Positions 20,129 to 58,940 of a stretch of 64,000 nucleotides of DNA are shown here, one piece after another. Made by a program: the position numbers and the translations under genes. The stretch is taken from IMG/VR virus record IMGVR_UViG_3300042562_001169; one strand, given 5' to 3'. Below the pieces are notes generated by a model that worked only from the letters and a program-made list of their open reading frames with translations, was not told where the DNA came from and did not search any database. Source of the DNA: a virus. Lineage: Duplodnaviria > Heunggongvirae > Uroviricota > Caudoviricetes. Position 1 is the first letter of the stretch, and the number at the start of each line of letters is the position of its first letter.

Positions 20129-20149
20129 ATTTATATGATATTTATTGTT

Positions 20150-20344
20150 ATGAAGTTAATTATAACAGAGTCACAATATGAAACCATCAACGAGATGATT
20201 AAACTTAACATTAAGGTAGGTGATACCATTATGGGTGGAAAATTTAAGAACAAGAAGGTTGTTGTGAAGACAATCGACAAGAATGAAAAGGGGGATATTA
20301 CAATAAACGGTAAACCATTGTTACGTTTTAGAATCATAGAATAA
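20150..20344 (+). CDS. MKIIITE-family paralog (MKLIITESQYETINEMIKL)
   Basis: The internal ATG at 20150 reproduces the family leader. The track start at 20135 lies within the terminator tail. Confidence 0.5.
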   Translation: MKLIITESQYETINEMIKLNIKVGDTIMGGKFKNKKVVVKTIDKNEKGDITINGKPLLRFRIIE

Positions 20345-20673: not shown

Positions 20674-20674
20674 T

Positions 20675-21947: not shown

Positions 21948-21949
21948 GT

Positions 21950-23512: not shown

Positions 23513-23517
23513 TGAAA

Positions 23518-23919: not shown

Positions 23920-24197
23920 TACACTTTGAAGATAAATTCTTTAGACATATTCTTTTTACACTCAGTTCCGATTGGGAACATACCTTGACTATTAGAAACA
24001 TCTTCACAGTCAACAGCAAGCCAATCAGTAGTCATATGAACCATAAACTTTACTTGTTCCGGTTTCATAGGTTTGTTACAACAAACACATCTCTCGGTGT
24101 GTCCATCCTTTTGTAATCTTTCGTTTTTATCGAAGTTAGGGCTGATGTATAGTTCGGTAGTGTTCATAATAATATCATTTAGATTACAAAGATACAA
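23919..24197 (-). CDS. hypothetical Cys-rich protein (possible zinc ribbon: CVCC...C..C)
   Basis: ORF. Confidence 0.45.
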   Translation of the reverse strand: MYLCNLNDIIMNTTELYISPNFDKNERLQKDGHTERCVCCNKPMKPEQVKFMVHMTTDWLAVDCEDVSNSQGMFPIGTECKKNMSKEFIFKV

Positions 24198-24244
24198 TTA
24201 TATTTTTATTTGACAAAATAACTTTCAATGATTATTATTGTTGT

Positions 24245-24493
24245 ATGAGAATTAAAGCGATATATAAGAAAAACTTAAAGATGAGTGAGGGTAAAGTGGC
24301 GGCACAGATTGCTCACGCAGTTAAGAATTTGGGAATAACACCGGTTGATAGTGATATCATAGTATTAAAGGTGTCAGATAAGAAGTTTGATGAGTTAACA
24401 TCACAGAATGATTGTTACATTCAAACAGATAAAGGTATGACCGAGGTGGAGTCGGGAACACAAACCGCGGCGGCGTGGATAGAAATACAATAA
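24245..24493 (+). CDS. minimal PTH2-family peptidyl-tRNA hydrolase-like protein
   Basis: MSEGKVAAQIAHAV matches GKGKVAAQCSHAAV. ...IQTDKGMTEVESGTQTAAA matches IQDAGRTQIAPGSQTVLGI of Pth2. Confidence 0.55.
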   Translation: MRIKAIYKKNLKMSEGKVAAQIAHAVKNLGITPVDSDIIVLKVSDKKFDELTSQNDCYIQTDKGMTEVESGTQTAAAWIEIQ

Positions 24494-24774
24494 TGATATT
24501 ACCTGCTGACTACACAAAATTAACCCAACCACAAAGGAGGGAAGTTAGACTACAATATATCAAGGAACAGAATAATCTTTGTATGTATTGTGGTGAAACA
24601 TTATATGAAGGCGCACCCGAAAGAATAACAAAAAAACCAATTACTTGGGGTTTATTTCCTCCGGGATTTTTAGACCACCCAATCCATCTTCAACATTGTC
24701 ATAAGACTAATATGACTGAAGGTGCCGTCCATAGTTATTGTAATGCCGTTCTATGGCAATACGAGGGGAGATAA
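24493..24774 (+). CDS. HNH / endonuclease VII-like zinc-finger protein
   Basis: ATGA overlap with the PTH2 stop. CMYCGE ... HLQHCHKTNMTEGAVHSYCNAVL resembles the Endo VII motif DHDHxTGxxRGLLCxxCN. Confidence 0.45.
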   Translation: MILPADYTKLTQPQRREVRLQYIKEQNNLCMYCGETLYEGAPERITKKPITWGLFPPGFLDHPIHLQHCHKTNMTEGAVHSYCNAVLWQYEGR

Positions 24775-24783
24775 AATTAAACG

Positions 24784-24810
24784 AGGGAAAGTAATTTTTC
24801 CCTTTTTTTT
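24784..24810 (+). terminator. rho-independent terminator
   Basis: gagggaaagtaatttttccc followed by tttttttt. Confidence 0.6.
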
Positions 24811-24822
24811 ATATTTATAGTT

Positions 24823-25593
24823 ATGAACTTACACGAAGATATACAAAGAATAAGACAAATGATGATTTCTGAGGAGATGGTCCAATCAGATGCGTGGAAA
24901 TCAATCAAAAAAACATTAGACATTCTTAAAAAGAAAAAGAAAGTTTTAATCTTAAGTTGTTCCAATAGATATAATTGGGATGAAAAAAACCTTGACATAC
25001 CAAAATCAAAGATGATTGCAATGTATCTTAACGATGAGTTAAAAGACTCAGTGTTAATTGATGTTTCCGAACTTAACATTGTTCCTTGTGAGGGGAATGT
25101 ATCAAGAAAAGACGGGAACAGTTGTGGATTACTTAAATCTATGCTCAAAGATAAGAAAAAGAATCCATCCGGAGACCATAGATGTTGGGCAAGTTATAAC
25201 AATCCAAAGGATGAGTTATGGAAGATATCCAAAGAGTTATTTGAGTCAGATGCTGTTGTATTCTTTAGTTCAATTAGATGGGGACAAACCAATATGTTCT
25301 ATCAGAATTTAATTGAGCGATTGACTTGGATTGAGAACAGACACGCAACATTGGGGGAATCAAATCTTGTTAAAGATATTGAGACAGGATTCATTTGTGT
25401 TGGACAGAATTGGAATGGTGAGAACGTAACTGAAACACAGAAAGAAGTTCATAAGTTTTATGGATTCAAACCAAACAATGACTTGTATTGGAATTGGCAA
25501 TATACCAAAGATGTGAATGATGAAACTCAAAAATCATATAAGGATTCACACAAGAAGTTTATTAAAGATACAAAATTACCTGAAGATAAATAA
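24823..25593 (+). CDS. flavodoxin-like-fold NAD(P)H oxidoreductase-like protein carrying the MNLHEDIQRIRQMM family leader
   Basis: KKVLILSCSNRYNWDEKNL and ESDAVVFFSSIRWGQTNMFYQNLIERL resemble the FMN-reductase/Flavodoxin_2 family motifs. Confidence 0.45.
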   Translation: MNLHEDIQRIRQMMISEEMVQSDAWKSIKKTLDILKKKKKVLILSCSNRYNWDEKNLDIPKSKMIAMYLNDELKDSVLIDVSELNIVPCEGNVSRKDGNSCGLLKSMLKDKKKNPSGDHRCWASYNNPKDELWKISKELFESDAVVFFSSIRWGQTNMFYQNLIERLTWIENRHATLGESNLVKDIETGFICVGQNWNGENVTETQKEVHKFYGFKPNNDLYWNWQYTKDVNDETQKSYKDSHKKFIKDTKLPEDK

Positions 25594-26318
25594 TGAACTT
25601 ACGACATGACATAAAAAGAATATTAAGGGAAGAAACAAATAAAGATTTAACTTCGGTAATAGAAATGTTATTAGAGGGATTTGTTAATGACCACAAAGAC
25701 ATTCTTTGTAAGGTTGAGGTTAAGCACCCGGACAAGAGAACCAAACTACCACATTCGGATAATGTTTATGAGAATTACAGAGCAACATTTTATTTAATTG
25801 CTCATAAAGGTGGGTATTCAACAACAAGAGCTCAATTGATGGATAACGTAATGAATGAGGTGTGGGATTTGGTATATAATTATACCGGACAGAAATTAGA
25901 TATGTTTACCAAACACGTAAAGAGTTGTGACGATATTATAAAAGAGAGTAAAGATAATAGTATTTCTGATATGATAAAAACTTTGGGGGTTTCTGATGCC
26001 ATTAAGTATTTTGGGAATTACTACACAATTGAGCCATACTTAAAAGTGGTTGATAAAGTTAATTTTATTAAAGAAAAAGTTAGAGAATTAAGTGATGATG
26101 GTAGTGGTGTTGGTTTACACGAGATAAATGAAGAGCCACTTCATTATAGTGATGAAGATGGGGAGGAACATCAAATAGAATGGTTAGGACTAACAAGTGT
26201 AGACATTAGTGTATATGAAGATGAGTATAGTGGTCATTTAAGGGACTATTATTCTAAGTATGAAAGTTTACCTGTGCAAATAATTGAGGAATTGGTTGAG
26301 ATATTATTAAACCACTAA
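25593..26318 (+). CDS. family paralog (MNLRHDIKRILREETNKD)
   Basis: Tandem array member, coupled start. Confidence 0.5.
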   Translation: MNLRHDIKRILREETNKDLTSVIEMLLEGFVNDHKDILCKVEVKHPDKRTKLPHSDNVYENYRATFYLIAHKGGYSTTRAQLMDNVMNEVWDLVYNYTGQKLDMFTKHVKSCDDIIKESKDNSISDMIKTLGVSDAIKYFGNYYTIEPYLKVVDKVNFIKEKVRELSDDGSGVGLHEINEEPLHYSDEDGEEHQIEWLGLTSVDISVYEDEYSGHLRDYYSKYESLPVQIIEELVEILLNH

Positions 26319-26321
26319 GAT

Positions 26322-26867
26322 ATGAATTTAAACGAGAACATACATAGAATCCATCAGATGATGGGTGTAGTGAGTGAAGATGTGAGTCCAAACACTGTTA
26401 AAACAATAATTGATATATTAGGTATTAGAGATGCTATTAATTATTATGGGGGTTATGAGAACCTTAAAAAATATCTAAATTTGGTTTATGATAGGAAGAG
26501 TGGTAAATGGGTGCACGCGAGTACATTACAGACCAATCCTGTTGATTTAAATACTATTACATCAAGAGAAGATAAGATTGAGTTTATTAAGGATACAATT
26601 TTTACTCAATACTACGGATTGTTTACTTATGGAGATGAAGGTTGGGACGAGAGTGATTATTCTGTGTTAGAGAGTACTGAAACTTATGAAAAGGTAGCAT
26701 TTACATACTATACTGATGAATTAAATGTAACAACATTTTATAGAAATGAGAATGGTGAGTTTTCATCTCAAACCGAAAATGATGACCATAGTGAAACAAT
26801 TAAATATGAGGATTTACCGGATGATATGATTAATAACGCATTTGAGTTTATAGCTAAAAAAATTTAA
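26322..26867 (+). CDS. family paralog (MNLNENIHRIHQMMGVVSED)
   Basis: Tandem array member. Confidence 0.5.
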   Translation: MNLNENIHRIHQMMGVVSEDVSPNTVKTIIDILGIRDAINYYGGYENLKKYLNLVYDRKSGKWVHASTLQTNPVDLNTITSREDKIEFIKDTIFTQYYGLFTYGDEGWDESDYSVLESTETYEKVAFTYYTDELNVTTFYRNENGEFSSQTENDDHSETIKYEDLPDDMINNAFEFIAKKI

Positions 26868-26869
26868 TT

Positions 26870-27328
26870 ATGAATTTAAACGAGAACATACATAGAATCC
26901 ATCAGATGATGGGGATTATCAATGAGAATAAAGTGGTTGATGTTGTTCAAGAAATGGGGTTATACCAAGCCACTCGTTATTTTGGGGGTTATGACAAAGT
27001 TACAAAATTAATGGGGGATTATGTGTTCTCAAATGAAGAAATGATTGATTTTATTAGAGAGGCTATAAAACATTTAGCTTACAAACATAATTCAACCGGG
27101 ATATCTACGTATGAATTAAATATGAATTCTATTCCATATGGTTCTCCTGATGAGGAGTTACATCAAATTGAGTATTTCAACCCGGAGTATGTTACCATAG
27201 ATGTTTATGGTGGTGAAGAGTATGAAAGACACAGAAGTAGTTATACTGAACGATATGAGGATTTGGATGATAATACATTAGATGAGGTTTTCCTGTTTAT
27301 GGTTGACGCAGTAGAACACTACAAATAG
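26870..27328 (+). CDS. family paralog (MNLNENIHRIHQMMGIINEN)
   Basis: The first 15 residues are identical to those of the previous ORF. Confidence 0.5.
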   Translation: MNLNENIHRIHQMMGIINENKVVDVVQEMGLYQATRYFGGYDKVTKLMGDYVFSNEEMIDFIREAIKHLAYKHNSTGISTYELNMNSIPYGSPDEELHQIEYFNPEYVTIDVYGGEEYERHRSSYTERYEDLDDNTLDEVFLFMVDAVEHYK

Positions 27329-27330
27329 AT

Positions 27331-27744
27331 ATGAGTTTACAAGATACCATAAGAAGAATATTAAGAGAGGAATCCTATTCTCCGGCGAGTGATGAATATA
27401 CTCCGGGGGAATATATTGTTCATAAATCAAATCCTATATGGAGAGACAACATAGAACTTACCGGATTACAAACATCGGTGGGGGAATGTTATCAATCACA
27501 CGTCGGTGACGATGAAGAATGTAAACCATCCATATTTGCAACAGATTCATTAGATGAAAAAGATATGTTTGATTCCACATATGACGATGACATTTGGATT
27601 ATCAATACGGAATGTGCCGGGGTTACTTGGTATAAAGACAAACATTTTGATGGTGGATATTACAAACATCATATAGTTACATTCGAGAACATATCACCGG
27701 ACTGTCTTAGATTATTATATAAAGGAACGGGGAAAAGTTATTAA
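27331..27744 (+). CDS. family paralog (MSLQDTIRRILREESYSPA)
   Basis: Tandem array member. Confidence 0.5.
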   Translation: MSLQDTIRRILREESYSPASDEYTPGEYIVHKSNPIWRDNIELTGLQTSVGECYQSHVGDDEECKPSIFATDSLDEKDMFDSTYDDDIWIINTECAGVTWYKDKHFDGGYYKHHIVTFENISPDCLRLLYKGTGKSY

Positions 27745-28128: not shown

Positions 28129-28482
28129 TTAATCAATATGATATTTAGTGATATGATATCTACCACATTTATTACAATGCCAAGTAGTATATACAACCTT
28201 TTCAACGTGTAGATTATATCTTTCCATAAACCAAGGGATAAAGATATCGTTTATATCATAACCACTTGTAACACCAAACATAGATACTAATTGATTTGAT
28301 ATCTCCTCAGATAATTCAACTATTCCATTATCACGATTAAATGTGAAAGACATATCGTCACCACTATCTTTATAGATAATAAATCTATGACCAACGGAAT
28401 ACTTCCTTAAGTTACCATAGTCCATATCCAACCATTTGGTAACGACATTTTTTCTCTTGTTCTCTGTGATTATTACTTTCAT
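28129..28482 (-). CDS. MKIIITE-family paralog (MKVIITENKRKNVVTKWLDMDYG; C-term PWFMERYNLHVEKVV plus CNKCGRYH ribbon)
   Basis: Carries both the N-terminal and the C-terminal family motifs. Confidence 0.55.
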   Translation of the reverse strand: MKVIITENKRKNVVTKWLDMDYGNLRKYSVGHRFIIYKDSGDDMSFTFNRDNGIVELSEEISNQLVSMFGVTSGYDINDIFIPWFMERYNLHVEKVVYTTWHCNKCGRYHITKYHID

Positions 28483-28784
28483 ATTTGTTCTACTCTATGA
28501 CATTTCTTGGCTCTAAACCCAAACTTTTTATTACCCCAATCCAATAACAACTCACTAACTTCATCGTTATCAAATCCGAACATACTACGGATAAAATCCC
28601 ATATTTCATTTAAAACATAGAATCCTTTTACTCTACTGTTGTAAAGCATTTTGAACATTCCCTTATCGGATATGAATACTCCTTCGTGTGAGGGGAATAT
28701 CATCTTTTTTAAGTCGGGATATTCCTCTTCTAACCAATTAATGGCGAGACGGATTCGTTTGTTCTCTGTGATTATAATCTTCAT
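28479..28784 (-). CDS. MKIIITE-family paralog (MKIIITENKRIRLAINWLEEEYPD)
   Basis: Coupled to 28129-28482. Confidence 0.55.
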   Translation of the reverse strand: MKIIITENKRIRLAINWLEEEYPDLKKMIFPSHEGVFISDKGMFKMLYNSRVKGFYVLNEIWDFIRSMFGFDNDEVSELLLDWGNKKFGFRAKKCHRVEQI

Positions 28785-35981: not shown

Positions 35982-36314
35982 ATGTTTTCAGCAGGTGGAG
36001 TTTATGTAATGGTAGCAGGAATCCTATTGGGATTAGCTGTTATAGGTGGGTCAGTTTATTATGTTAATAAAATGTTTGCTGATAACACTCAGGAAATATT
36101 GGTTCGGTTTATTTTATTAATATTCACCTCATTGGTTGCGTTATTTATTGTTGATAAGGTAATTGCTTGGCAGGTTAAACTATTGAGTGATGAGCAGAAT
36201 GGGCAATTATTTGATTTGATTAAAACATTGGTGTTAATGATATTCTCGTATTACTTTGGAACTAAAGAAGGAGTTGAAACCAATGGTGACCAAAATAAGA
36301 AAGATAAAGAATGA
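35982..36314 (+). CDS. small membrane protein (3 TM)
   Basis: The ATG at 35982 is preceded by gggggatatttatt. The track start at 35946 lies in the repeat/terminator. Confidence 0.45.
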   Translation: MFSAGGVYVMVAGILLGLAVIGGSVYYVNKMFADNTQEILVRFILLIFTSLVALFIVDKVIAWQVKLLSDEQNGQLFDLIKTLVLMIFSYYFGTKEGVETNGDQNKKDKE

Positions 36315-36616
36315 AAATTATTATAACAGAAGAACAGTATGGTAGAATGTTTAATTCCAAACTTTGGTTAAGACGTAACTATGATTTGGTTAAACAGGAG
36401 TTGAAGGCTACAATGGACTTCACCCGGGACCGTATCTGTGATAAAGATGAATTTGAAAATTTTGAATATTATTTCTTCTCCGTGTTTATGGATTGCCTTC
36501 ACCCTTATTATTATGAGGAAGAGAATTTTGATTATAAGGAATTTCAAACCACGTTAACTGATATGTTCTATGTTGAATGTACCGAGTTTTATTTTAACGG
36601 TAGAGAGAAATGTTAA
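36311..36616 (+). CDS. MKIIITE-family paralog (MKIIITEEQYGRMF)
   Basis: Tandem array member. Confidence 0.55.
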   Translation: MKIIITEEQYGRMFNSKLWLRRNYDLVKQELKATMDFTRDRICDKDEFENFEYYFFSVFMDCLHPYYYEEENFDYKEFQTTLTDMFYVECTEFYFNGREKC

Positions 36617-36650
36617 CACCCCTTTTAAAGTTAAGGGATATTTATTTGAT

Positions 36651-37016
36651 ATGAGAATTATTATAACAGAAAGTAAATTTAAAAGTATGGTTACCAAAAT
36701 GGTTGGGTATGATTTATCCCACCGTATTGAGATGATTACAAGTTGGGAGAATTTAACCGGTTCGGAAAAACATAATGTATTTGGTGATAATAAATCTATT
36801 TTTGTTCAGTATCAAAACCATTATGGTCCGATGTATATATTTTCAAATTTTAAAGGACATAATTATTTGGCTCAAAATCAAAAAGGTAAACTATGGTTTA
36901 TTGTTGATACAAGTACTGGATACGAAATAGATTACTATGATTTTTTACAAATGCTTAATCTTGATATGACGGGTATTAGTTTAAGAAAAATAATCGATGA
37001 ATTTGCTGAAGAATGA
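36651..37016 (+). CDS. MKIIITE-family paralog (MRIIITESKFKSMVTKMVGYD)
   Basis: The ATG at 36651 is preceded by gggatatttatttgat. The track start is upstream, within a hairpin. Confidence 0.55.
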   Translation: MRIIITESKFKSMVTKMVGYDLSHRIEMITSWENLTGSEKHNVFGDNKSIFVQYQNHYGPMYIFSNFKGHNYLAQNQKGKLWFIVDTSTGYEIDYYDFLQMLNLDMTGISLRKIIDEFAEE

Positions 37017-37351
37017 AAATAATAATTACAGAAAGTAAAGTTGGGCAAGTAAAAAATTTAGTACAAGAAATTATTGATGATGAGTTAAATAACTTACGTC
37101 AAGAGGCTGATGAAGAGTGGGGTTTGGGTGAAATGGATGAGATAAATGAGGTTGGTTCTGTTGAAAAGATTGTTGTTGATGAAATAAAAACAACTGATGG
37201 TATTAGTGTTAATGTCAATCTTTATTTAAACACAGATAGAGAAGATTTTGAAATAATTTTACCAATGATTGAATATACTATTGAGCAATGGATTCCTAAT
37301 GCTAAAATTCATATAAACAAAATATATCTAAATGAAAATAATAATTACTGA
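37013..37351 (+). CDS. MKIIITE-family paralog (MKIIITESKVGQVKNLVQEII)
   Basis: Coupled start. Confidence 0.55.
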   Translation: MKIIITESKVGQVKNLVQEIIDDELNNLRQEADEEWGLGEMDEINEVGSVEKIVVDEIKTTDGISVNVNLYLNTDREDFEIILPMIEYTIEQWIPNAKIHINKIYLNENNNY

Positions 37352-37652
37352 GAGACAGAATAATTTATTGATGGAGGATTTACCCATTAGTCTTCGTAGA
37401 CGAATTAATTATAATATTCTTAAAGACCATTTGGATTTTTCCATATTAGAATCCGTTAATCCTTGTGATTATAGTACATTAGGGGATTTTATTGGTGAGA
37501 TGTGTGATATGATGGTTGTGGATTTTTTAGATGATTTTGAATATGATAGCGGTCTAAAAGTTAGTCCAAAAGATAAAGATGATTTTTATTATTTTATGAC
37601 TGATAATTTTGCTGATTACCTTCAAGAATTTTATGATAAACAATGTGCGTAA
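37332..37652 (+). CDS. MKIIITE-family paralog (MKIIITERQNNLLMEDL)
   Basis: Array member. Confidence 0.55.
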   Translation: MKIIITERQNNLLMEDLPISLRRRINYNILKDHLDFSILESVNPCDYSTLGDFIGEMCDMMVVDFLDDFEYDSGLKVSPKDKDDFYYFMTDNFADYLQEFYDKQCA

Positions 37653-37680
37653 CCGATATATTTATATTAAAACAAATTAT

Positions 37681-38172
37681 ATGAAAAAAATTGTAAGATT
37701 AACTGAAGGAGAGTTAACAAATTTAATAAAAAGAATATTAAAGGAGGATTCGACAAAAAATAATTGTCATAAAGAATATACAAACCCTGAATCCAATACA
37801 GACCCATACATATATAGAATGGGTCCGGAATGTATTTGGCAAACTAAAAGTGATAAAACAAAAAAACAAATAGGTAAAGAAATACCTGATTGGATTTCAT
37901 TATATAAAAATGAAAAGGCAAACCAAAAACTTGATAAATGGTTCCCAAACGCTAAATCGGATTGTTCAAAATGTAAAAATGGTGGTATTAAAAAAACCCC
38001 ACCATCTGATTTAATTAAGAAAAAAGTTGATTTAGTTAAGGGTAAAATTGGTGAAAATAAATGTCCTAAAACCATAAATTGTATGCCGTCACCTAATGGT
38101 AAACCTAACCCTTGTGATGATTTTTTTATTAGTTACTGTATCAAATCAGGTAAGACTTCGGCAACATATTAA
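37681..38172 (+). CDS. family paralog with Cys/Lys-rich C-terminus (MKKIVRLTEGELTNLIKRILKED...)
   Basis: ATG at 37681. Combines the LTE-type and ILKE-type leader motifs. Confidence 0.5.
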   Translation: MKKIVRLTEGELTNLIKRILKEDSTKNNCHKEYTNPESNTDPYIYRMGPECIWQTKSDKTKKQIGKEIPDWISLYKNEKANQKLDKWFPNAKSDCSKCKNGGIKKTPPSDLIKKKVDLVKGKIGENKCPKTINCMPSPNGKPNPCDDFFISYCIKSGKTSATY

Positions 38173-38177
38173 TAATT

Positions 38178-38639
38178 ATGAAAAAGAAAATTATAAAATT
38201 AACGGAATCAGATTTAAAAAACATTGTGATGAGAATTATCAATGAACAATTTGATATGGACTACTACGACATTATTTTGGATTTATATAACGAGGTTGGT
38301 CTTGAGGGTATGACTGATGAAGAAATTGAATATTTGAAAAGTGGCGGTGAGAGTAATGTCCCTGAAAGATTTTTGGGTGGAGACTTGGATATTGATTCTG
38401 AGGAATCTGAAGATTTTGGTGGACTTGATAGATTCAAGGAAATTATGGACGGATACAATCATAAGATTGTGGATACCGCTCCCGACGGTAAGTTGAGAGT
38501 TGTCTTTAGAGAAAACCCTGAGATATTGGAAAGACTTGATGGTGTGGTTCCGGAATCATTAATAGAAGTTAGACAAGGACATATAATCATTCTTGTTCCT
38601 GAAAATTGGACGGATGATATTTTCGGAGAAGAAATATAA
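38178..38639 (+). CDS. family paralog, acidic (MKKKIIKLTESDLKNIVMRIINEQ)
   Basis: ORF; terminator downstream. Confidence 0.5.
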   Translation: MKKKIIKLTESDLKNIVMRIINEQFDMDYYDIILDLYNEVGLEGMTDEEIEYLKSGGESNVPERFLGGDLDIDSEESEDFGGLDRFKEIMDGYNHKIVDTAPDGKLRVVFRENPEILERLDGVVPESLIEVRQGHIIILVPENWTDDIFGEEI

Positions 38640-40036: not shown

Positions 40037-40056
40037 ATTGGGGGATATTTATTTAT

Positions 40057-41185: not shown

Positions 41186-41506
41186 ATGAGGGTTATAATT
41201 ACAGAAGATAAAAGGGAACGTCTTATTGATAATTTTTTATCTGAGGAATATGGTGGATTAATCCGATATGAACCTAAAAACAGACCTGACCTTATTTTTT
41301 TTGTAAAAGACACGGGAAAAGACCCTATAAAAAGAGATATTGTATTATTTTACAATAAAGATGACCAATATGCTTTTATTAATTGGAATATTGTGGATAG
41401 TATTAGAATGTTCACCGGTGATGAATGGGACTCAGAACAATTTGTTAAAAGATGGTTAAAGAAAACTTACGGGATTGACCCGATTAAATTATACAACAAT
41501 TTTTAA
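41186..41506 (+). CDS. MKIIITE-family paralog (MRVIITEDKRERLIDNFLSEEYGG; C-term KRWLKKTYGIDPIKL)
   Basis: Array member. Confidence 0.55.
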   Translation: MRVIITEDKRERLIDNFLSEEYGGLIRYEPKNRPDLIFFVKDTGKDPIKRDIVLFYNKDDQYAFINWNIVDSIRMFTGDEWDSEQFVKRWLKKTYGIDPIKLYNNF

Positions 41507-41507
41507 T

Positions 41508-42323
41508 ATGAACAAAAGATTAAAATACTTATCTCTTATTAAGAAATTAATTTCTTGCGAAAGTCGTGAGCAATTATCCGACACTATTAAAGAAATTAAT
41601 GAATTTAATAAAGAATATTCTATTACCTCAACGTCGGAAGAATTTAAAAAATTTGAAATTGCTATTGCAGTAATGAGAGTTAAATTAAAACGTAAACACG
41701 ATATTATAGAAAACCAATTGAGGGGTCAAAAACAAAATAACAAGACTAATATGAAAATAGTAATTACAGAAAGACAAGAAGATTTATTATTCAGTTTACT
41801 AACCGAAGGGGAAAACAAACCAACCAACCCAAAGTTATGGGCACAATGTCTTGCTTGGGCAAGGTCAAGATATAAAGTATGTCCAAGTGCGTATTGTAAT
41901 GGAGCTGCTGCCAAACGATATAAATCAAAAGGTGGTGGATGGAGAAAAAATAAAAAATCCACTAATGAGGCATCAAGTCCAACACAACAAGCGGCGATTG
42001 CCATCAATATGAAGAAGAAAGGGGTTGAACCAAAGAACGAAAATGTTAATGAAGATTTGAAAAGATGGTTTAAGGAGAAGTGGGTTGATGTAAGCAAAAA
42101 AGTTGACGGGAAACATCCACCCTGTGGAAGAAAGGACGCTGATGGTAAGTCATATCCAAAATGTCGTCCATCAAAAAAGGTTTCATCTGAAACACCTAAG
42201 GTGGCTTCATCATATGATAAAGATGAGAAGAAAGCGATGACACAACAAAAACGAAGAGCTGAAAAGAAAGACCCAAAAGTGGGAACAGGAAATAAACCAA
42301 CAATGACACATTACGAAAAATGA
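41508..42323 (+). CDS. MKIIITE-family paralog with Lys/Cys-rich body. The leader (MKIVITERQEDLLF) begins at 41751, and an in-frame 81-codon N-terminal extension runs from 41508.
   Basis: There is no stop codon between 41508 and 41751. Confidence 0.45.
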   Translation: MNKRLKYLSLIKKLISCESREQLSDTIKEINEFNKEYSITSTSEEFKKFEIAIAVMRVKLKRKHDIIENQLRGQKQNNKTNMKIVITERQEDLLFSLLTEGENKPTNPKLWAQCLAWARSRYKVCPSAYCNGAAAKRYKSKGGGWRKNKKSTNEASSPTQQAAIAINMKKKGVEPKNENVNEDLKRWFKEKWVDVSKKVDGKHPPCGRKDADGKSYPKCRPSKKVSSETPKVASSYDKDEKKAMTQQKRRAEKKDPKVGTGNKPTMTHYEK

Positions 42324-42691
42324 AAATAGTGATTACAGAATCTCAATACAACAAACTATTCAACGACTTAGACGATAGTTTTTTTGGAACCGTAGAAGAA
42401 ACCAACTTTGTTGTTGGTGACTTACTGACTGAGGCGGAATATCAGGGACGCAAAGTTCAACTTGGTAAAATTATGCAAGGGGATGTTAAAAAATTCAAAG
42501 TGTATGTTAAGAACGACAAAGGAAATGTTGTTAAGGTTAACTTTGGTTTTGGTGGTAAATCGGCAAAAGGAAAACGAATGGTTATCAAAAAAAATAATCC
42601 GGCTAGAAGAAAATCTTTTAGAGCAAGAATGAATTGTGATAGTCCGGGACCAAGATGGAAAGCAAGATACTGGGCTTGTAGAACTTGGTAA
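42320..42691 (+). CDS. MKIIITE-family paralog, basic (MKIVITESQYNKLFNDLDD)
   Basis: Coupled start. Confidence 0.55.
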   Translation: MKIVITESQYNKLFNDLDDSFFGTVEETNFVVGDLLTEAEYQGRKVQLGKIMQGDVKKFKVYVKNDKGNVVKVNFGFGGKSAKGKRMVIKKNNPARRKSFRARMNCDSPGPRWKARYWACRTW

Positions 42692-46892: not shown

Positions 46893-47285
46893 ATGAAAAT
46901 TATAATAACTGAGAGTAAATTAAATCAAGCGGTCATTGATTACCTGAACGAGACATACGATACCAATAACATTGGTTGGACATATGGTATTGATGATTGG
47001 GGTAATGAAGTGGACTACGCAATTGAATTTTATACTGACGATTATGATGAAGGTGATAATACTTTATTTAGATGGTATGGTGAAGATTATTGGGATAGTG
47101 ATGATGCTGATGGTTGGGGTGAACCATATCGTAGCGAATTAAAAAGTAAATCTCCTTTGTTAATATTTGAAAATGATGATGTTTTTATTGCTTTAAACGG
47201 TTATTTTGGTGATAAATGGAAACAACCATTTATTGATTGGTTTTGGGATAAATTCCACGTACCGGTTAAGACAATCAATAAGTAG
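46893..47285 (+). CDS. MKIIITE-family paralog (MKIIITESKLNQAVIDYLNETYD; C-term DWFWDKFHVPVKTINK)
   Basis: ATG at 46893 preceded by gagatatttattgat. The track start at 46791 overlaps the upstream gene. Confidence 0.55.
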   Translation: MKIIITESKLNQAVIDYLNETYDTNNIGWTYGIDDWGNEVDYAIEFYTDDYDEGDNTLFRWYGEDYWDSDDADGWGEPYRSELKSKSPLLIFENDDVFIALNGYFGDKWKQPFIDWFWDKFHVPVKTINK

Positions 47286-47751: not shown

Positions 47752-47775
47752 CCCTCCTGTCCGGAGGGTTTTTTA
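47752..47775 (+). terminator. rho-independent terminator
   Basis: ccctcctgtccggaggg followed by tttttt. Confidence 0.7.
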
Positions 47776-47796
47776 TTTACACAGATATTTATAGTT

Positions 47797-48915
47797 ATGA
47801 AAATTAAGATTACCGAAACTCAATATAAAAATTTAGACGAAGCCGTTGGTGTCCCAACCAATATTATTTCCGTCTCCCAACAACTATACGATAAGATGAT
47901 GTTGGAACTTAGACCCAACGCCAATTTAAACGCTCAATTCCAAAAAACAATTACCTTAAAAGGTGATTTTCAAATTAACGAATATAAGTTTGACACAATA
48001 AAATTATCTTTTAATGTTCACGATTTGGATGATTATGAATTTGACGGTATAGAAAAACCTAAAGTGTTGTTAAATGGTATGACACACCACGGGAAGGTTA
48101 AGATGAATGCTAAGTTTAATTATGAGGCAAACCAAAATATGAACAAAATTGAATTGTCAATTACTTTTGTTGTTGATAATGATGCGACAAGTCAAGACGT
48201 TATTGATGAGTTTAAGAAAGAACGAACATTAATGATTTCAAGTTTGGCTCACGAACTAAAACACGCTTATGATGAATCTGTTAACCCAATAGTTCAAACA
48301 CATAAAAGAGTTGATTATAATATTGGGACTCAAAGAAGATTTGGGAATATCCCACCGTTAAATAAATTATTAAATTATATGTATTTTGCTCACACCACAG
48401 AAAATTTGGTTAGAGCAACTGAAGTATATGCCGCGTTGGAAGAGAGTGGAATCACAAAGGAAGATTTTCTTAAATTTATCACAAACCATAAAGTTTACGT
48501 TGCCTATAAAGATGGGATTAATTTAACTTACGAGGGATTAAAAGAAGATTTAAAGAATATTATTCCTCAAATTAAACAAACTTTTGACGATAGTGGTATT
48601 AGTTATCCGGAGGACGCATCTGATGATGAGATGGTTGAAGTGACATTAGAGGTATTCTTTAAAACATTATTACAATGGAAAGCTGGTGGTATGAGAGATT
48701 TTTTAACCGATGATTTTATGGAAGAACTATTTGGATTCAGAGGTGCTAAACAAAGATATTTTGATAAGTATCTTAGTAAGATTACTCGATTTGGTAACGA
48801 CTACGAGAAATTCTTCAAATATGAGATTAATCAAACAAGAAACATTTGTCTTAAGATGACAAAAAAATTAAGTAAATTATATTCCTTAATAAAAGACAAA
48901 AACCCCCAACAATAG
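47797..48915 (+). CDS. 372-aa protein with family leader (MKIKITETQYKNL) and HExxH motif (LAHELKHAYDE): putative zinc metallohydrolase
   Basis: Motifs read from the translation. The fold is not established. Confidence 0.5.
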   Translation: MKIKITETQYKNLDEAVGVPTNIISVSQQLYDKMMLELRPNANLNAQFQKTITLKGDFQINEYKFDTIKLSFNVHDLDDYEFDGIEKPKVLLNGMTHHGKVKMNAKFNYEANQNMNKIELSITFVVDNDATSQDVIDEFKKERTLMISSLAHELKHAYDESVNPIVQTHKRVDYNIGTQRRFGNIPPLNKLLNYMYFAHTTENLVRATEVYAALEESGITKEDFLKFITNHKVYVAYKDGINLTYEGLKEDLKNIIPQIKQTFDDSGISYPEDASDDEMVEVTLEVFFKTLLQWKAGGMRDFLTDDFMEELFGFRGAKQRYFDKYLSKITRFGNDYEKFFKYEINQTRNICLKMTKKLSKLYSLIKDKNPQQ

Positions 48916-48933
48916 TTGAGGGTTTTTTTATTA

Positions 48934-49266
48934 TTAAGATTTAAATTTTTCTCCTTTAACTTTCACCCATTCCAAATCACCATCTAAAATTAAGACATCA
49001 CTATATGATGGGACATCTTTAGTGTTTTCCTCGGTGTGTTTATCATCATAATCATCCCCAATAGATGGGATAACTTTAACAAAATCAGAACCTTCTTCGG
49101 TGATTGTTATTTTCCATTCACCATTATATAAAATAGTTCCTTTAGTCCCTAATGAAGTTTTAAACTTGATAGGTTTTCTCTCGGATGAGTAAGCCTCGAC
49201 CTCATCAATAATTTGTCCGTCAATCTCAATTAAATCATCGGACGCTCCGTAAATCCTTGTTATCAT
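48934..49266 (-). CDS. hypothetical protein
   Basis: ORF downstream of clpP on the minus strand. Confidence 0.45.
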   Translation of the reverse strand: MITRIYGASDDLIEIDGQIIDEVEAYSSERKPIKFKTSLGTKGTILYNGEWKITITEEGSDFVKVIPSIGDDYDDKHTEENTKDVPSYSDVLILDGDLEWVKVKGEKFKS

Positions 49267-49267: not shown

Positions 49268-50002
49268 TTATCGTTTTAAGATTTCTTTAGAGTAAAATTC
49301 ATCAAACCCAACCATCATTTCTGTCATAGATTTGTTTGTCTCTAATCCAACGATGTTATCAATTAAACCAAACTTTTTCGCCTCATCTGAGTTGAACCAT
49401 TTGTCATTTCTTGATGACTCATACATCTCGTCAAATGTTTTCCCACAATTCTCCGCCAAGATTTTGAATAACATATAGTTATACTTCTCCGCCTCCAATT
49501 GGTTGATACGAGTGTCCTGAACATTTCCTTGTGTTCCGTGAGATACCATATGTGTCATAATTTTTGAGAAGATTAATGAACTTCTTTTTCCTTTGGCTCC
49601 TGACGATACTAATACGGAACCCATAGACGCACACATCCCAACATTTAATGTTGCAACATCCGGTTTGATGTAGTTCATAGTATCTCGGATTCCAAGACCT
49701 GACAATACGGAACCTCCCGGAGTGTCAAGATACATACTGATATCTTTTTTATCTGTGGTTTCCAAGAAGATAAGTTGAGCTTGTATGATAGATGCCATCT
49801 GACTCTCAACCGGTCCGGAAACCCAAATAATTCTGTCCATCATAAGTCGGGAGAAAATATCAAGTTGAGTTGCTCTCATCTCTCTTTCTTCCAAAATGTA
49901 TGGAGTAACACTCTCGATGTGTTTTTGGTAGTAATCCAAATTAAGTCCTGAAATACCTCTGTCGCTCATCGCGAACTTTTGAAACTCTTTTCCGTAATTC
50001 AT
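49268..50002 (-). CDS. clpP: ATP-dependent Clp protease proteolytic subunit ClpP
   Basis: Canonical blocks: LDTPGGSV, catalytic Ser in GMCASMGS and catalytic His in MTHMVSHG. Full-length match to bacterial ClpP. Confidence 0.85.
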   Translation of the reverse strand: MNYGKEFQKFAMSDRGISGLNLDYYQKHIESVTPYILEEREMRATQLDIFSRLMMDRIIWVSGPVESQMASIIQAQLIFLETTDKKDISMYLDTPGGSVLSGLGIRDTMNYIKPDVATLNVGMCASMGSVLVSSGAKGKRSSLIFSKIMTHMVSHGTQGNVQDTRINQLEAEKYNYMLFKILAENCGKTFDEMYESSRNDKWFNSDEAKKFGLIDNIVGLETNKSMTEMMVGFDEFYSKEILKR

Positions 50003-52496: not shown

Positions 52497-53051
52497 ATGG
52501 ATAACGCAATTTACGAATACATAAAAAACGGAATAACTATTAATGGTAATCCAATTGATGGATATACTGTTTTCACAATCCCAACCCAACATTTCAAAAT
52601 TGATAATTTGGATGAATTAACGAAATGGACTTTTGAAAATGAGATTAGAAAACAGAAAGAACACGATGAATTAACTTCTGAGATATTCAAGGAAGTTCAA
52701 AAAGAAATTGACCAAGAGATTCTAAACCAATTACGTGGTGGTGAACCTAACCCGGATTTCATCCCAATGAATACGACTGATAGATTATTTCATAAATTTT
52801 TGGATGCTCCTGACCCCGATGCTGACCCGGACGTAATATGGGGTAAAAACCAATTTGTTAATATGTTATTAACCGATGATGACTTCTACCAAAAGTGGGG
52901 TGAGAATTGTTGTGAAGAATTAACTTACGAAGAAAGATATAAATATTGGTTTTCACATAACTATGAAACCGGATTTGAATATACACCAACTATTGAACCC
53001 GATTTTGATAATGATTATTTTGAACCAACACCAAAAAGAAAATTAAAATAA
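52497..53051 (+). CDS. hypothetical acidic protein (contains TDDDFYQKWGE)
   Basis: ORF. Confidence 0.5.
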   Translation: MDNAIYEYIKNGITINGNPIDGYTVFTIPTQHFKIDNLDELTKWTFENEIRKQKEHDELTSEIFKEVQKEIDQEILNQLRGGEPNPDFIPMNTTDRLFHKFLDAPDPDADPDVIWGKNQFVNMLLTDDDFYQKWGENCCEELTYEERYKYWFSHNYETGFEYTPTIEPDFDNDYFEPTPKRKLK

Positions 53052-53052
53052 A

Positions 53053-53715
53053 ATGGAATTAAGTGTAATGGAAAGGTATGTTGCATTCATTTGTAGTGAA
53101 CTACCAAAAACAAGAAGAGTATTACTAACGCCACCACCTCCAATGGAAAACGGAGAGTATGGGTATAAGAGAATGAGTAAAGTCGGACCTCACGTTTATA
53201 TGCCTGTGGAAATTGAGATTGTTGAAACATATACTCGTTCTGCTAAGTTGTGTGTCAAATTTGAGGATTATCAAATGAATGATATTTTCTATATGTCCCG
53301 TCATAAAGGACCGGATAAATTATTGGAGGAAATTGACAAGAAGATTGATAAGATTGTTAATAGAACCTTGATTGATGATGGAAGACAGGAGTGGGTTAGA
53401 GAACAATATAAAATCAAGAGTGATGATTTCCCGTTATTTAAACTTCGTCCGGGAGTTGAGGTTGATGTGTATGGTGATTTGTATAAGAGGTATCTTGTAC
53501 ATACTATTGAAGGTGTGAAAAATGGTTTTGATAGAATAAAAGGTTATTTAGATAATTGTTTAGTTGAGTTTGATGGTTCATATGAACACTTCTCTAACCC
53601 ATCATTCCAATATGGGTATAGACCTCATACACAAGAAGAATTTATTGAGAAGTTAAAAACCGACGAGGAGTTTAACAAAAAGTGGGGTGGTATGAGAAAA
53701 AATATTGTTGAGTAA
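53053..53715 (+). CDS. hypothetical protein whose C-terminus (TQEEFIEKLKTDEEFNKKWGG) copies the ThyA small-domain insert
   Basis: 19 of 23 residues are identical to ThyA TQEEFINKIKTDDEFAKKWGE. Confidence 0.5.
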   Translation: MELSVMERYVAFICSELPKTRRVLLTPPPPMENGEYGYKRMSKVGPHVYMPVEIEIVETYTRSAKLCVKFEDYQMNDIFYMSRHKGPDKLLEEIDKKIDKIVNRTLIDDGRQEWVREQYKIKSDDFPLFKLRPGVEVDVYGDLYKRYLVHTIEGVKNGFDRIKGYLDNCLVEFDGSYEHFSNPSFQYGYRPHTQEEFIEKLKTDEEFNKKWGGMRKNIVE

Positions 53716-55391: not shown

Positions 55392-56663
55392 ATGAATAAA
55401 TTAGACAAAACATATCAGGACTTACTCCAAGACATTCTTGACAACGGAGTAGTAAAACAAGACAGAACAGGGACGGGAACAATCTCGGTATTCGGAAGAC
55501 AAATCAGACATAAAATGTCAGAAGGATTCCCATTACTTACAACCAAAAAAATGCCATTCAAAACAATCGTAACAGAACTTCTTTGGTTCTTAAGAGGTGA
55601 TACCAACATTAAGTTTTTGGTTGATAATGGATGTAATATTTGGAATGGTGATGCTTATAAGAACTACATAAATAACCCAGCTTACAAAGCTGAATCTGTT
55701 GCCGATTTAATGGGTTCACAAGCAGGTCAATTGGTAAAATGCTCAACACAAGAAGAGTTCATCAACAAAATAAAGACAGATGATGAGTTTGCTAAGAAGT
55801 GGGGTGAATTGGGTCCAATTTACGGTAAGCAATGGAGAAATTGGGGGAGGTTTGAGTATGAAGGTTTCACCCAAGAAGGTAGCGAAACATTAAATAACAT
55901 AGATGTAAATTGGAAAATACCAACAGACCAAATCCAAAACCTAATCAACGACCTTAAAACAAATCCAGACTCAAGACGATTGATGGTTAATGCTTGGAAT
56001 GTTGGAGAACTGGACCAAATGGTTCTTCCACCTTGTCATTATGGATTTCAAGTTTATACAAGAGAGTTGAGTAATGAAGAACGATTAGATTGGATGAGAG
56101 GTAATAAGTCTAAAGTAATCTTACCAATGAGAGACCCTAATATTGAGTTTTCTATGGATGAATGGTTTAGACCATACGGAGTTCCTAAACGAGCAATCTC
56201 TTTAATGTGGAATCAACGTTCAGTAGATACATTCTTAGGATTACCATTCAACATTGCTTCTTATGGATTGTTATTAGAAATAATTGCAAAAGAAGTTAAT
56301 ATGGTTCCTGACCAGTTGATTGGGAATCTTGGTGATGTTCATTTATATTCAAATCATATTGAACAAGCCAAAGAACAAATTGGAAGAGAATATACTCACC
56401 AAGAAAGAGATGAATTGTTACAACAAGAGATGGGTAGAGAAAGATATAATAAGGCGGTTGATGAATTGATGCCGTTCGGTGGGGGATTAAGTGGATATTA
56501 TGAATTTTATAAAATTCCATATAGAACAAGAGAACCTTATCGATTACCAACATTAGTAATGGTTACTAACCCCGATTTAAAGTTTGATGAATATGTTTAT
56601 GATAATTTAAAACTTGTAAACTATCAATCACATCCAACCATTAAAGCACCTTTAAGTAATTAA
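55392..56663 (+). CDS. thyA: thymidylate synthase ThyA, long form with small-domain insert and extra C-terminal insertion (423 aa)
   Basis: DRTGTGT, PLLTTKK, LPPCHYGFQVY (catalytic Cys), DTFLGLPFNIASY, GDVHLYSNH. Insert ...DEFAKKWGELGPIYGKQWR as in the L. casei/B. subtilis ThyA type. Confidence 0.9.
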   Translation: MNKLDKTYQDLLQDILDNGVVKQDRTGTGTISVFGRQIRHKMSEGFPLLTTKKMPFKTIVTELLWFLRGDTNIKFLVDNGCNIWNGDAYKNYINNPAYKAESVADLMGSQAGQLVKCSTQEEFINKIKTDDEFAKKWGELGPIYGKQWRNWGRFEYEGFTQEGSETLNNIDVNWKIPTDQIQNLINDLKTNPDSRRLMVNAWNVGELDQMVLPPCHYGFQVYTRELSNEERLDWMRGNKSKVILPMRDPNIEFSMDEWFRPYGVPKRAISLMWNQRSVDTFLGLPFNIASYGLLLEIIAKEVNMVPDQLIGNLGDVHLYSNHIEQAKEQIGREYTHQERDELLQQEMGRERYNKAVDELMPFGGGLSGYYEFYKIPYRTREPYRLPTLVMVTNPDLKFDEYVYDNLKLVNYQSHPTIKAPLSN

Positions 56664-58096: not shown

Positions 58097-58125
58097 CCGA
58101 CTGATGTCGGTTTTGTTGTTTTAAG
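58097..58125. terminator. bidirectional terminator hairpin (accgactgatgtcggttttgtt)
   Basis: Sits between convergent genes. The stem resembles the hairpin at 52453-52478 (ccgacattgatgtcgg). Confidence 0.6.
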
Positions 58126-58888
58126 CCAAATTCAAATTAGCACTTGTCATAACTGAAGCTACTTTATCTTGATTATGTAAATTTGTACTTTTTCTATCGG
58201 AAATTGCTTGTTTAATTAATTCTTCATCAGATTTACCTGATTTAATACCTTCATCTAAACTTTTTGCAAATTTCTTAAAATATCCCGGACCATTCCAGCA
58301 AGCGTATGAAAAGTGCATTAATAAACTATCATTAGCCTCAACACGTTTTTTAAGTTCAGGATTTGTAAAATAGTTTTTTGAATTAGTGTCATATTGATTT
58401 TTCATTATTTTAGCGGCTAAAGTTTTTAATGTATCCTCTAGTTGACCCCCTCTATAATAATGTTTCCAAGTTTTACAAAACTGTTGCATACCTAAGTCAG
58501 TTTTTTCTTTATCAATAATTCTAAAAAATTCCTTACCCTCAGGTGAACTTTCAATACTACCATTGTATCTGTCAAGACCAAACATAGTTTCTGTTGATAC
58601 ACCCATTCCTTTAGTTGAATGTCCACATTTAGGATTCCAGTAACCACCTTCAAATTCGTCAATCACTTTTTTGGTTACGTTTTCCCATTTAGAATCAACA
58701 GACCCTGAACTTAAATCAAATTTTCCAATTGCCGATTTTATTTTATTTCCAAAATCACCGGTTTTAAGCATATTAACAATTGTATCTGCCAAACCTTTAA
58801 GTGCGTCACCGGCTCCTTGTTCGTTAATATTATATAATGATTTAATATTGTTTTTTTCTTCTTCGGTTATTAATAATTTTTTTGACAT
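58121..58888 (-). CDS. putative peptidoglycan hydrolase, GH108-like N-terminal motif (FEGGYWNP...STKGMGVS)
   Basis: Resembles the GH108 signature EGGYxNDPxDxGGxTxxGI. Weak, motif-level only. Confidence 0.35.
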   Translation of the reverse strand: MSKKLLITEEEKNNIKSLYNINEQGAGDALKGLADTIVNMLKTGDFGNKIKSAIGKFDLSSGSVDSKWENVTKKVIDEFEGGYWNPKCGHSTKGMGVSTETMFGLDRYNGSIESSPEGKEFFRIIDKEKTDLGMQQFCKTWKHYYRGGQLEDTLKTLAAKIMKNQYDTNSKNYFTNPELKKRVEANDSLLMHFSYACWNGPGYFKKFAKSLDEGIKSGKSDEELIKQAISDRKSTNLHNQDKVASVMTSANLNLA

Positions 58889-58940
58889 ATCAAATTTTCT
58901 TTTATTATAAATACTAACATATTTTAATATATTTATAAAT

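Follow-up and report, generated by a model that had tools for sequence, protein, structure and literature searches.

Can one short peptide serve as the common front end of otherwise unrelated phage proteins? This question is raised by a stretch of 64,000 nucleotides (nt) from a tailed phage (Caudoviricetes; IMG/VR record IMGVR_UViG_3300042562_001169), the whole of which is called the window here. Its gene at 47797-48915 encodes a protein of 372 amino acids (aa) with an HExxH motif, and the first 15 or so residues of this protein recur as a leader at the start of other proteins. The first-pass annotation of the window regarded the leader as a portable N-terminal module and as a targeting, packaging or partner-binding signal rather than a product of simple paralogy. 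Our results bear out the portability: the leader is very probably a portable module which is selected at the peptide level and is evolutionarily separable from the bodies behind it. For its function, circumstantial support points to targeting, packaging or partner binding.

The leader and its unrelated bodies

The open reading frame (ORF) of the 372-aa protein is real, and the HELKH motif first noticed in it is invariant at residues 152-156. The gene and its immediate surroundings comprise the following features.

47752-47768, plus strand: intrinsic-terminator-like GC-rich hairpin with T-run, closing the upstream unit; CCCTCCTGTCCGGAGGG TTTTTTATTT
47785-47792, plus strand: promoter-like box ATATTTAT, 4 nt before the ATG
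47797-48915, plus strand: 372-aa ORF, starts MKIKITETQYKNL; conserved family of T4-like jumbo phages
47797-47841, plus strand: leader peptide, residues 1-15, MKIKITETQYKNLDE; I-T-E at 5-7, L-D-E at 13-15
48250-48264, plus strand: HELKH codons, residues 152-156; H152, E153 and H156 invariant
48898-48927, minus strand: terminator-like 13-bp hairpin with T-runs, between convergent genes

The leader, termed type A, occupies the first ~15 residues and follows the pattern M-K-[IY]-I-I-T-E-[SN]-[QK]-[YL]-x-x-[LI]-x-E; the consensus from 167 distinct DNA instances reads M-K-[I/Y]-I-I-T-E-[S/N/E]-[Q/K]-[Y/L/F]-x-x-[L/I]-[I/V]-(E). It is laid out as a hydrophobic, strand-prone MKIII, a T-E-[SN]-[QK] core and an amphipathic helix usually ending in [LI]-x-E. 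A search of the six-frame translation of the window with the regular expression M[KRN][IVLKY][IVLKR][IVL][TKRNS][EKQ] yielded 20 matches, all located at the starts of ORFs of at least 40 aa, as compared with 0.04 in shuffled sequences. Among 19 leader proteins of the window, the ungapped mean pairwise identity is 66% for residues 1-9 and 14% for residues 10-18, and lies at the random level of 5-9% past residue 18. The leader is also frequent in 1.5 Mb of related loci, which were picked only for encoding a relative of the 372-aa protein and thus independently of the leader: the strict motif was found on 235 of 2736 crude ORFs and a looser core motif on 302 of 2594, corresponding to 9-12% of the ORFs.

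In 98% of the copies I or L occupies position 5, and E is found at position 7 in 96%. The leader codons show background synonymous usage, with Ser8 encoded by TCN and AGY in background proportions and the Glu7 codons GAA and GAG at 80:20; a mild excess of A-ending codons is present at positions 3-6 (ATA 0.53 versus 0.32, ACA 0.61 versus 0.44). The background synonymous usage argues for selection on the peptide and not on a DNA repeat or an RNA element, and rules out a repeat or recombination signal at the DNA level as the primary cause.

The range of bodies behind this peptide is wide. The exact 10-mer MKIIITE[ST]QY occurs on more than 120 IMG/VR stretches, which is a lower bound, and among the matches listed 103 complete ORFs starting with it fall into at least 29 unrelated body clusters of 92-748 aa. 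A looser motif collects 472 distinct leader ORFs in 158 clusters. The exact 10-mer precedes, amongst others, M23 peptidase, SET+DHH and GNAT domains, and looser variants stand on a lysozyme, an ECF sigma factor and a CCA-adding-type nucleotidyltransferase. In Pfam, the cargo domains were recognised as Peptidase_M23 with PG_binding_1 (5e-23), SET with DHH, GNAT, a treble-clef zinc finger, Phage_lysozyme with LysM, Hydrolase_2, an ECF-type sigma factor (r2 4e-12, r4 8e-15) and PolyA_pol/CCA-adding (2e-40). A 30-column leader profile, searched against 1.84 billion proteins, detected 84 representatives at E <= 1e-3, 73 of which match from residue 1.

Conversely, one and the same body is found behind different N-termini. 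The 372-aa protein has 266 homologues, all metagenomic, and its conserved body begins at AVGVP, right after the leader. In this family the body is preceded by type A (MKIIITESQLKFINE, then ALGVP), by long forms (MKKIIKLKESDLESIVNKVISE, then SLGVP), by a helix-only N-terminus termed type B (MELNKIIKKVLRE, then AVGVP) or by 7-aa stubs (MKKNIRE, then AVGVP), and in a neighbour-joining tree calculated from the bodies type A appears in two non-sister clades. Leader exchange among orthologues is likewise seen in the family of the 361-aa protein encoded at 4480, whose members begin MKIKITESQY..., MNKNYIVSESQLQRIIE... or, with type B, MRDRIKQILQEQ... Since type B replaces type A on the same bodies in some orthologues of both families, the two leaders may be functionally equivalent. 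Moreover, the body encoded at 42320 is leaderless in gp13 of Pelagibacter phage Aegir (79 aa), which starts directly at the body; HTVC008M and C48C1 have other N-termini on a body of this type. In one lysin-like family, the leader takes the place of an N-terminal peptidoglycan-binding domain.

The leader also occurs in two to three tandem copies (MKVVINESQYNKLFNKTKTK-LVIDESQYNRLFNKTKTK-LVITESQFNSLMSE...) in three mutually distant relatives, and these copies are conserved between representatives with less than 50% identity. The leader is therefore a discrete unit of about 20 aa that is kept even without an initiator Met. The proteins with tandem copies (P0369, P0435 and P0434; P-numbers denote proteins from the profile search, L-numbers such as L001, L061 and L132 related phage loci or contigs) are homologous to each other, 486-571 aa long and contain 2-3 units of ~20 aa.

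The four proteins originally cited as sharing one leader are more heterogeneous than proposed. The leader is present on the 372-aa protein and on the 361-aa protein at 4480. The protein encoded at 24823 starts MNLHEDIQRIRQMM, which is a different N-terminus of the related, helix-only type B, and the MKITIKH of the protein at 58941 follows a motif of its own family, MK[VI]T[IV].H, without the T-E-[SN]-[QK] core; it is probably the first strand of that protein's own fold. The bodies of all four have no mutual BLAST similarity. Nor were the enzyme names proposed for the latter two confirmed: for 24823, taken as a flavodoxin-fold oxidoreductase-like protein, there was no significant Pfam, PHROG or PDB sequence match, and the label of a SprT-like zincin for 58941, which contains a HEWVH motif, is unconfirmed by a weak Pfam SprT-like match (13.5 bits versus a cutoff of 25.6, E=0.065) and by PDB Spartan at E=1.5. 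Pfam and PHROGs searches gave nothing significant for the four proteins; with six small leader proteins included, only phrog_7595 for the 42320 body was significant. Nothing of significance turned up among PDB sequences for 24823, 58941 or 58888(-).

The leader genes of the window, the 372-aa gene apart, are located as follows.

476-994, plus strand: type-A leader protein, 172 aa, MKLIITESKHK
4480-5565, plus strand: 361-aa protein with type-A leader, MRIIIKENQYFKILE
20150-22605, plus strand: operon-like type-A array with starts at 20150, 20344, 21268, 21648, 21950 and 22276
23105-27744, plus strand: helix-only type-B array with starts at 23105, 24823, 25593, 26322, 26870 and 27331
28129-28784, minus strand: two type-A leader paralogues with starts at 28784 and 28482
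36311-38639, plus strand: leader gene array with type-A starts at 36311, 36651, 37013 and 37332
37681 (MKKIVRLTEGELTNLIKRILKE) and 38178 (MKKKIIKLTESDLKNIVMRIINE), plus strand: long strand-plus-helix variants in the 36311-38639 array
41186-41506, plus strand: type-A leader protein, 106 aa, of a small paralogue family, MRVIITEDKR
41751-42323, plus strand: leader with DUF5872 body (Pfam), MKIVITERQEDLLFS, in frame within ORF 41508-42323
42320-42691, plus strand: leader and acidic linker (residues 1-38), then phrog_7595/Aegir gp13-like body
46893-47285, plus strand: 130-aa type-A leader protein just upstream of the 372-aa gene, modelled with AlphaFold
58121-58888, minus strand: 255-aa protein with the leader variant LLITEEEKNNIKSLY

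The array at 20150-22605 contains one interspersed type-B gene (20675) and has a hairpin and a ATATTTAT box ahead of its first gene. The type-B N-terminus is also present on 16846(-) and 20675 and was undetected by a profile built from the type-A helix; regions with the type-B motif (e.g. MNLNENIHRIHQMMG, MSLQDTIRRILREE, MKELIKKILREE) are 23105-27744, 16361-16846(-), 20675-21268 and 11273-12865. In ORF 41508-42323, an 81-aa segment (MNKRLKYLSLIKKL...) runs stop-free into the leader MKIVITERQ (41751) and the DUF5872 body, and in P0375 this segment is joined in frame with another leader and body, of the 42320 type. This ORF could be a real fusion, contain an internal start, or represent two genes without an intervening stop.

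Several of these genes bear on plain paralogy, i.e. on the view that the leader is the conserved first beta-alpha unit of one diverged family. True paralogues with similarity past the leader do exist (20344, 21950, 22276, 28482, 28784 and 41186; and 21268, 46893 and 476), and in 46893 the helix belongs to the fold. However, the bodies of 47797, 4480, 42320, 41751 and of 29-158 other clusters are unrelated and include distinct Pfam domains, leaders are swapped among orthologues, and one body has leaderless homologues in other phages. For the large proteins paralogy is refuted by these observations, in agreement with the first-pass annotation, whereas it explains the arrays of ~100-130-aa leader proteins, to which that earlier view does not extend. 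As a general explanation of the leader, paralogy is most improbable.

Promoter-like box and hairpin upstream of leader genes

The box ahead of the 372-aa gene is not confined to this gene. Orthologues of the 372-aa gene down to 28% identity retain a TATTTAT core at 4-6 nt upstream of the ATG. In a set of ~4,250 ORFs the distance between box and ATG is bimodal, with values of 4-6 nt and 12-18 nt, and a box 3-7 nt before the ATG is present in 36% of the leader genes versus 8% of the other genes. A stricter box test, applied to loci chosen independently of the leader, gave an odds ratio of 9.3 (p = 7e-42). A box only 4-6 nt from the ATG implies leaderless or near-leaderless mRNA. In related contigs the box is located 15-31 nt upstream of the genes for TerL, portal, S77 protease, a scaffold-like protein and tail sheath. 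Shared with genes of this kind, the box is probably the structural or late promoter of the lineage.

Within the window, box sites are 47785-47792, 4468-4475, 20138-20145, 24811-24818, 40045-40052 and 58929-58936, and the box occurs also in L120, L132, L061, L095 and L144; the coding strand of the thymidylate synthase (ThyA) region at 50-58 kb of the window has none. The hairpin upstream of the 372-aa orthologues is kept in related loci, and a composite of hairpin and box precedes 47797, 20150 and 40057. The 372-aa gene appears to form a monocistronic transcription unit of its own.

These signals bear on an explanation without any targeting, namely that the leader is the end of an expression "start cassette". 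The first codons or the nascent peptide would be tuned for initiation on leaderless or Shine-Dalgarno (SD)-poor mRNAs, and the unit of terminator, promoter, ATG and leader would spread by recombination and capture genes behind it; we regard this explanation as unlikely. The idea stays alive because the leader is strongly linked to a box 4-6 nt from the ATG, and it further accommodates the mild enrichment of A-ending codons at positions 3-6, the hairpin-plus-box composites and the tolerance of orthologues for swaps or loss of the leader. In addition, modular shuffling mediated by promoter-early stem-loops (PeSLs) is documented in T4-like phages (PMC2839356, PMC4122927). On the other hand, it is the amino acids of the leader that are conserved, with synonymous codons at background frequencies, and conservation of Glu7 reaches 96% even though a role at the RNA level could be filled equally well by other A/U-rich codons. 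Amphipathic periodicity and [LI]-x-E reach residue ~16, about half of the leader genes have no TATTTAT within 45 nt upstream, and the boxless leader genes of the window sit inside operons and carry the same peptide. Finally, the internal tandem copies without initiator Met are conserved in divergent relatives.

A probable docking tag and its possible partners

With some reserve, we consider the leader to be probably a partner-docking tag of some kind. The best explanation as a whole may be an address or docking peptide which would bring unrelated cargo to one common partner, and for this partner our tentative choice is the prohead core. Head targeting in the manner of the capsid targeting sequence (CTS) of phage T4, with proteolytic removal of the peptide, is a serious possibility that stays short of probable. 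It is favoured because an S77 protease is present in the lineage, because there are two [IL]-x-E motifs in the leader, and because the promoter box is shared with structural genes.

In detail, TerL, portal, tail sheath and gp21 prohead protease were recovered from related loci by tblastn with T4 head and tail proteins, and Pfam detected Peptidase_S77 (1.9e-22, 1.4e-21) and Portal_T4 (7e-77) on leader-bearing related contigs. The presence of TerL, portal, sheath and S77 protease on such contigs places the lineage in the T4 superfamily. A T4-type S77 prohead protease is seen in L120 and L132, and in L132 two leader genes lie between portal and protease. Candidate scaffold or core proteins are encoded beside this protease, with 259 and 145 aa in L120 and with 247 and 155 aa in L132. 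A second [LI]-x-E within residues 11-18 is present in 69-82% of cases, with 20 of the 29 independent cargo clusters, versus 7% of control windows, and all members of the 372-aa family, stubs included, keep a hydrophobic-x-E just before (A/S)(L/V)GVP.

In the head-targeting scenario, leader proteins would be expressed from the same promoter class as head and tail genes, and scaffold or core would bind the exposed N-terminal peptide. The S77 protease would then cut after Glu at I-T-E (5-7) and/or [LI]-x-E (13-16), in the 372-aa protein between L-D-E and AVGVP, and the cargo would stay in the head and be ejected with the DNA. In its fullest form, with one 7-16-residue tag cut by the S77 protease loading dozens of effectors into the capsid for ejection with the DNA, this scenario is doubtful; the cargo would include peptidoglycan hydrolases, a sigma factor, RNA-repair or RNA-modification enzymes, the HExxH protein and small proteins.

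AlphaFold models of the 372-aa protein and of the 130-aa protein at 46893 show residues 1-6 as an unpaired coil of lowest confidence and a helix from residue 7. In the 372-aa protein the coil has a predicted local confidence (pLDDT) of ~63, and the helix (7-16), less confident than that of the 130-aa protein, ends at the invariant E15-x-x-G-V-P. In the 130-aa protein the helix (7-21, pLDDT ~95) is part of the domain.

A number of observations weigh against head targeting. A tag on 9-12% of the ORFs amounts to some 40-60 proteins per genome, which is much to package, and a CCA-adding enzyme and a sigma factor are not classically virion-borne. In the 130-aa family, helix 7-21 is confidently part of the fold, and therefore only the first 7 residues would be removable there as a propeptide. 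The leader shares no sequence with the T4 CTS except for MK... and I-x-E, and [LI]-x-E could be the mere end of an amphipathic helix. The S77 protease comes from related contigs and is absent from the 64-kb window, and the "late" label of the TATTTAT box is itself something that we infer. Furthermore, the 372-aa gene mostly adjoins genes for P-loop kinase, phosphoesterase and RNA-ligase-like proteins and not head genes, and in L061 the HExxH gene lies in a tail/baseplate module, the parts of which are not processed by prohead proteases.

A docking tag could also serve another shared intracellular partner, such as a phage or host hub, a chaperone or a Clp-type unfoldase, which we judge unlikely. 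In the Clp case, the candidate role of the leader would be that of a recognition signal or degron timing the lifetime of many accessory proteins. The leader is strictly N-terminal and predicted to be exposed, the cargo represents a broad cross-section of cytoplasmic functions, tandem copies suit avidity binding, and a ClpP gene (3e-52) is a conserved near neighbour of the 372-aa gene. The ClpX "N-motif 2" reportedly described by Flynn et al. in 2003 is said to read Met-basic-hydrophobic x3-X5-hydrophobic, the start of which M-K-hydrophobic x3 resembles. However, the rest of this motif misfits, as leader position 11 is polar, and genes for ClpX or an adaptor were not recognised in the window. 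More generally, another partner leaves the [IL]-x-E enrichment, the shared promoter box and the leader genes in the head module unexplained.

Still less likely is a self-association element, in which the MKIII strand and the amphipathic helix would drive homo- or hetero-oligomerisation of leader proteins into a common condensate or assembly. In the monomer models the strand-prone hexapeptide stays unpaired, the helix is amphipathic in pattern and tandem repeats exist, but the same element is hard to justify on cargo as varied as M23 peptidases, sigma factors, CCA-adding enzymes and over 150 further families. A signal peptide or a secretion signal of the signal-anchor-release type was rejected, with a hydrophobic run of just 3-4 residues and cargo including sigma factors and CCA-adding enzymes, as was a sliding-clamp/PIP-box motif (Q..L), for which the spacing is unsuitable. 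The contrast in charge and isoelectric point between leader and non-leader proteins is negligible (median pI 5.6 versus 6.0).

For the 372-aa body itself, a zincin assignment is a guess at the level of the motif. In a 35-sequence alignment reaching down to 28% identity, H152, E153, H156, D159 and E202 are invariant, and the invariant residues further include E15, G18, V19, P20, M95, Y174, Y196, V205, R206 and E209; D159 or E202 might serve as a third metal ligand alongside HELKH, if there is one. Neither a zincin fold nor a significant profile match was found for this body, and BFVD yielded matches to uncharacterised Caudovirales proteins only.

A genuine ClpP gene in convergent orientation (49268-50002, minus strand; 3e-52) lies near the 372-aa gene; in the window a single small ORF (48934-49266) separates the two. 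In L001 and L002, which are syntenic marine contigs with 48% identity, ClpP is directly adjacent, and the arrangement is conserved. In several lineages the neighbours are genes for a P-loop kinase, a metallophosphoesterase and an RNA-ligase-like protein, and in L061 (4161-18116) the order is sheath, tube, baseplate hub, HExxH protein, a 623-aa protein, a 1587-aa protein and a gp25-like wedge. These neighbours give hints of a virion-associated hydrolase or of a link to RNA repair; synteny as an argument for a virion role of the 372-aa protein was set aside as inconsistent (tail/baseplate genes in L061, RNA-repair-like neighbours elsewhere).

The lineage consists of uncultured aquatic jumbo phages of the T4 superfamily with contigs of ~260-320 kb; IMGVR_UViG_3300032280_000442 is an example among those of 270-320 kb. 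Homologues of the 372-aa protein are located on IMG/VR contigs of 257-318 kb, a protein 100% identical to the 361-aa protein on 66 contigs, the longest with 272 kb, and all phages carrying the leader are uncultured. When the 372-aa protein was compared with 50,697 phage records by tblastn, no match emerged, and no cultured phage was found to carry it; blastn of the region gave only weak ClpP-level matches, to uncultured phages of 634-642 kb. No host can be assigned, because the sole match in a scan of GTDB genomes is in a probably mis-binned Phycisphaerales metagenome-assembled genome.

With a G+C content of 31% and tightly packed short ORFs, the window looks like an accessory region of a large phage. 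Its genes include those for ClpP (3e-52), thymidylate synthase, an SPFH protein, a nitroreductase and phosphoesterases; structural genes are absent from the annotated window genes, and scans for tRNAs and Rfam families gave no match in the window. At 52497-53715 and 55392-56663, the thymidylate synthase stands out by its length of 423 aa, its Pfam match falling into 2 stretches, and two ORFs upstream of it (184 and 220 aa) show 34-38% identity to it over 41-72 aa; they may be ThyA-derived fragments or paralogues. Between 29660 and 31300, ~1.6 kb are devoid of a convincing ORF except for a 97-aa ORF at 30582; the G+C content is slightly higher there (0.33-0.36), and neither a tRNA nor an Rfam match, even at E <= 1, was found. 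Small paired paralogous membrane proteins (9036-9760 and 7573-8057; 38% identity between 9036 and 9392, a similar hydrophobic profile of 7573 and 7827) adjoin an SPFH/Band-7 gene (8133-8972). In the related contig L132, selfish elements are present in the head module: the T4-type portal gene (22-2730, 902 aa) carries, in its N-terminal part, a large insertion that looks HNH/intein-like, and a gene for a GIY-YIG endonuclease stands just ahead of the S77 protease gene.

If the leader is an address label, one motif would predict which proteins are routed to one destination in jumbo phages widespread in lakes and oceans, and a very short cargo-loading tag would be available for the engineering of large phage capsids. 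With the capsid as destination, these proteins would form an injected "first-strike" proteome readable from sequence alone, probably rich in anti-defence and host-takeover functions now annotated as hypothetical, and would amount to a modular T4 internal-protein system on a massively larger scale. As an expression or stability cassette, the leader would show how new genes are domesticated in systems with SD-poor, leaderless mRNAs. Either way, motif and TATTTAT box provide a testable handle on ~10% of the "dark" genes in these genomes.

Known systems compared

Full-text searches of the literature for leader strings and for jumbo-phage N-terminal motifs gave nothing relevant, and several known systems resemble the leader in part. 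Polymorphic toxins and PE/PPE proteins have a conserved N-terminus on hypervariable C-terminal cargo; their N-termini fold into domains of 90-180 aa and belong to dedicated secretion systems, whereas the leader comprises 7-20 aa and no secretion system is in evidence. Encapsulation peptides of microcompartments and cargo-loading peptides of encapsulins consist of a short amphipathic helix and a linker which dock unrelated enzymes into a shell. Encapsulin shells have the HK97 capsid fold, and encapsulin peptides are usually C-terminal. These peptides differ from the leader in that there is no sequence similarity and no shell genes are found here.

PeSLs are composites of hairpin and promoter that flank variable genes in hyperplastic regions and mediate their shuffling (PMC2839356, PMC4122927). 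The direct succession of stem-loop terminator (47752-47768) and promoter box (47785-47792), found also at 20150 and 40057, is alike. In contrast, PeSLs are non-coding and have early sigma70-type promoters, while the conserved unit here runs into the ORF as a peptide and the ATATTTAT box is shared with structural genes.

The giant phages phiKZ, 201phi2-1 and SPN3US package tens of different proteins, some of them in paralogue families, and the propeptides of their head and ejection proteins are removed by a gp21-like protease, which cuts behind Glu in a minimal motif (PMC9026906, PMC5694885). These propeptides differ from the leader in their motif, S/A/G-x-E, and in being long instead of a shared, near-identical tag.

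The closest parallel is the CTS of the T4 internal proteins IPI, IPII and IPIII, of which IPII and IPIII both start with MKTYQEFIAE, followed by A, on unrelated and rapidly diversifying bodies. There, the first 10 residues suffice for targeting to the prohead core, gp21 makes its cut behind L/I-x-E, and it has been proposed that T4-like phages generally use the CTS to load varied proteins into heads (PMC9026906; PMC3012670). With an Asp at the cleavage site, processing in T4 is blocked whereas targeting persists (PMC9026906). The leader is likewise located at the extreme N-terminus and shared by unrelated proteins of one phage, starts with MK and ends in [LI]-x-E, i.e. in the gp21 motif at the level of sequence; the lineage encodes S77 proteases on related contigs, and the genes often form arrays of small, diverse proteins. 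Unlike the T4 CTS, the leader is not homologous to MKTYQEFIAE, has helix-only, long and tandem variants, and includes a helix within a folded domain in some families. It is present on ~10% of the proteome, large enzymes included, whereas T4 has 3-4 internal proteins. No published description of the leader was found, and its most fitting place is among the N-terminal cargo-targeting peptides, as a much expanded variant.

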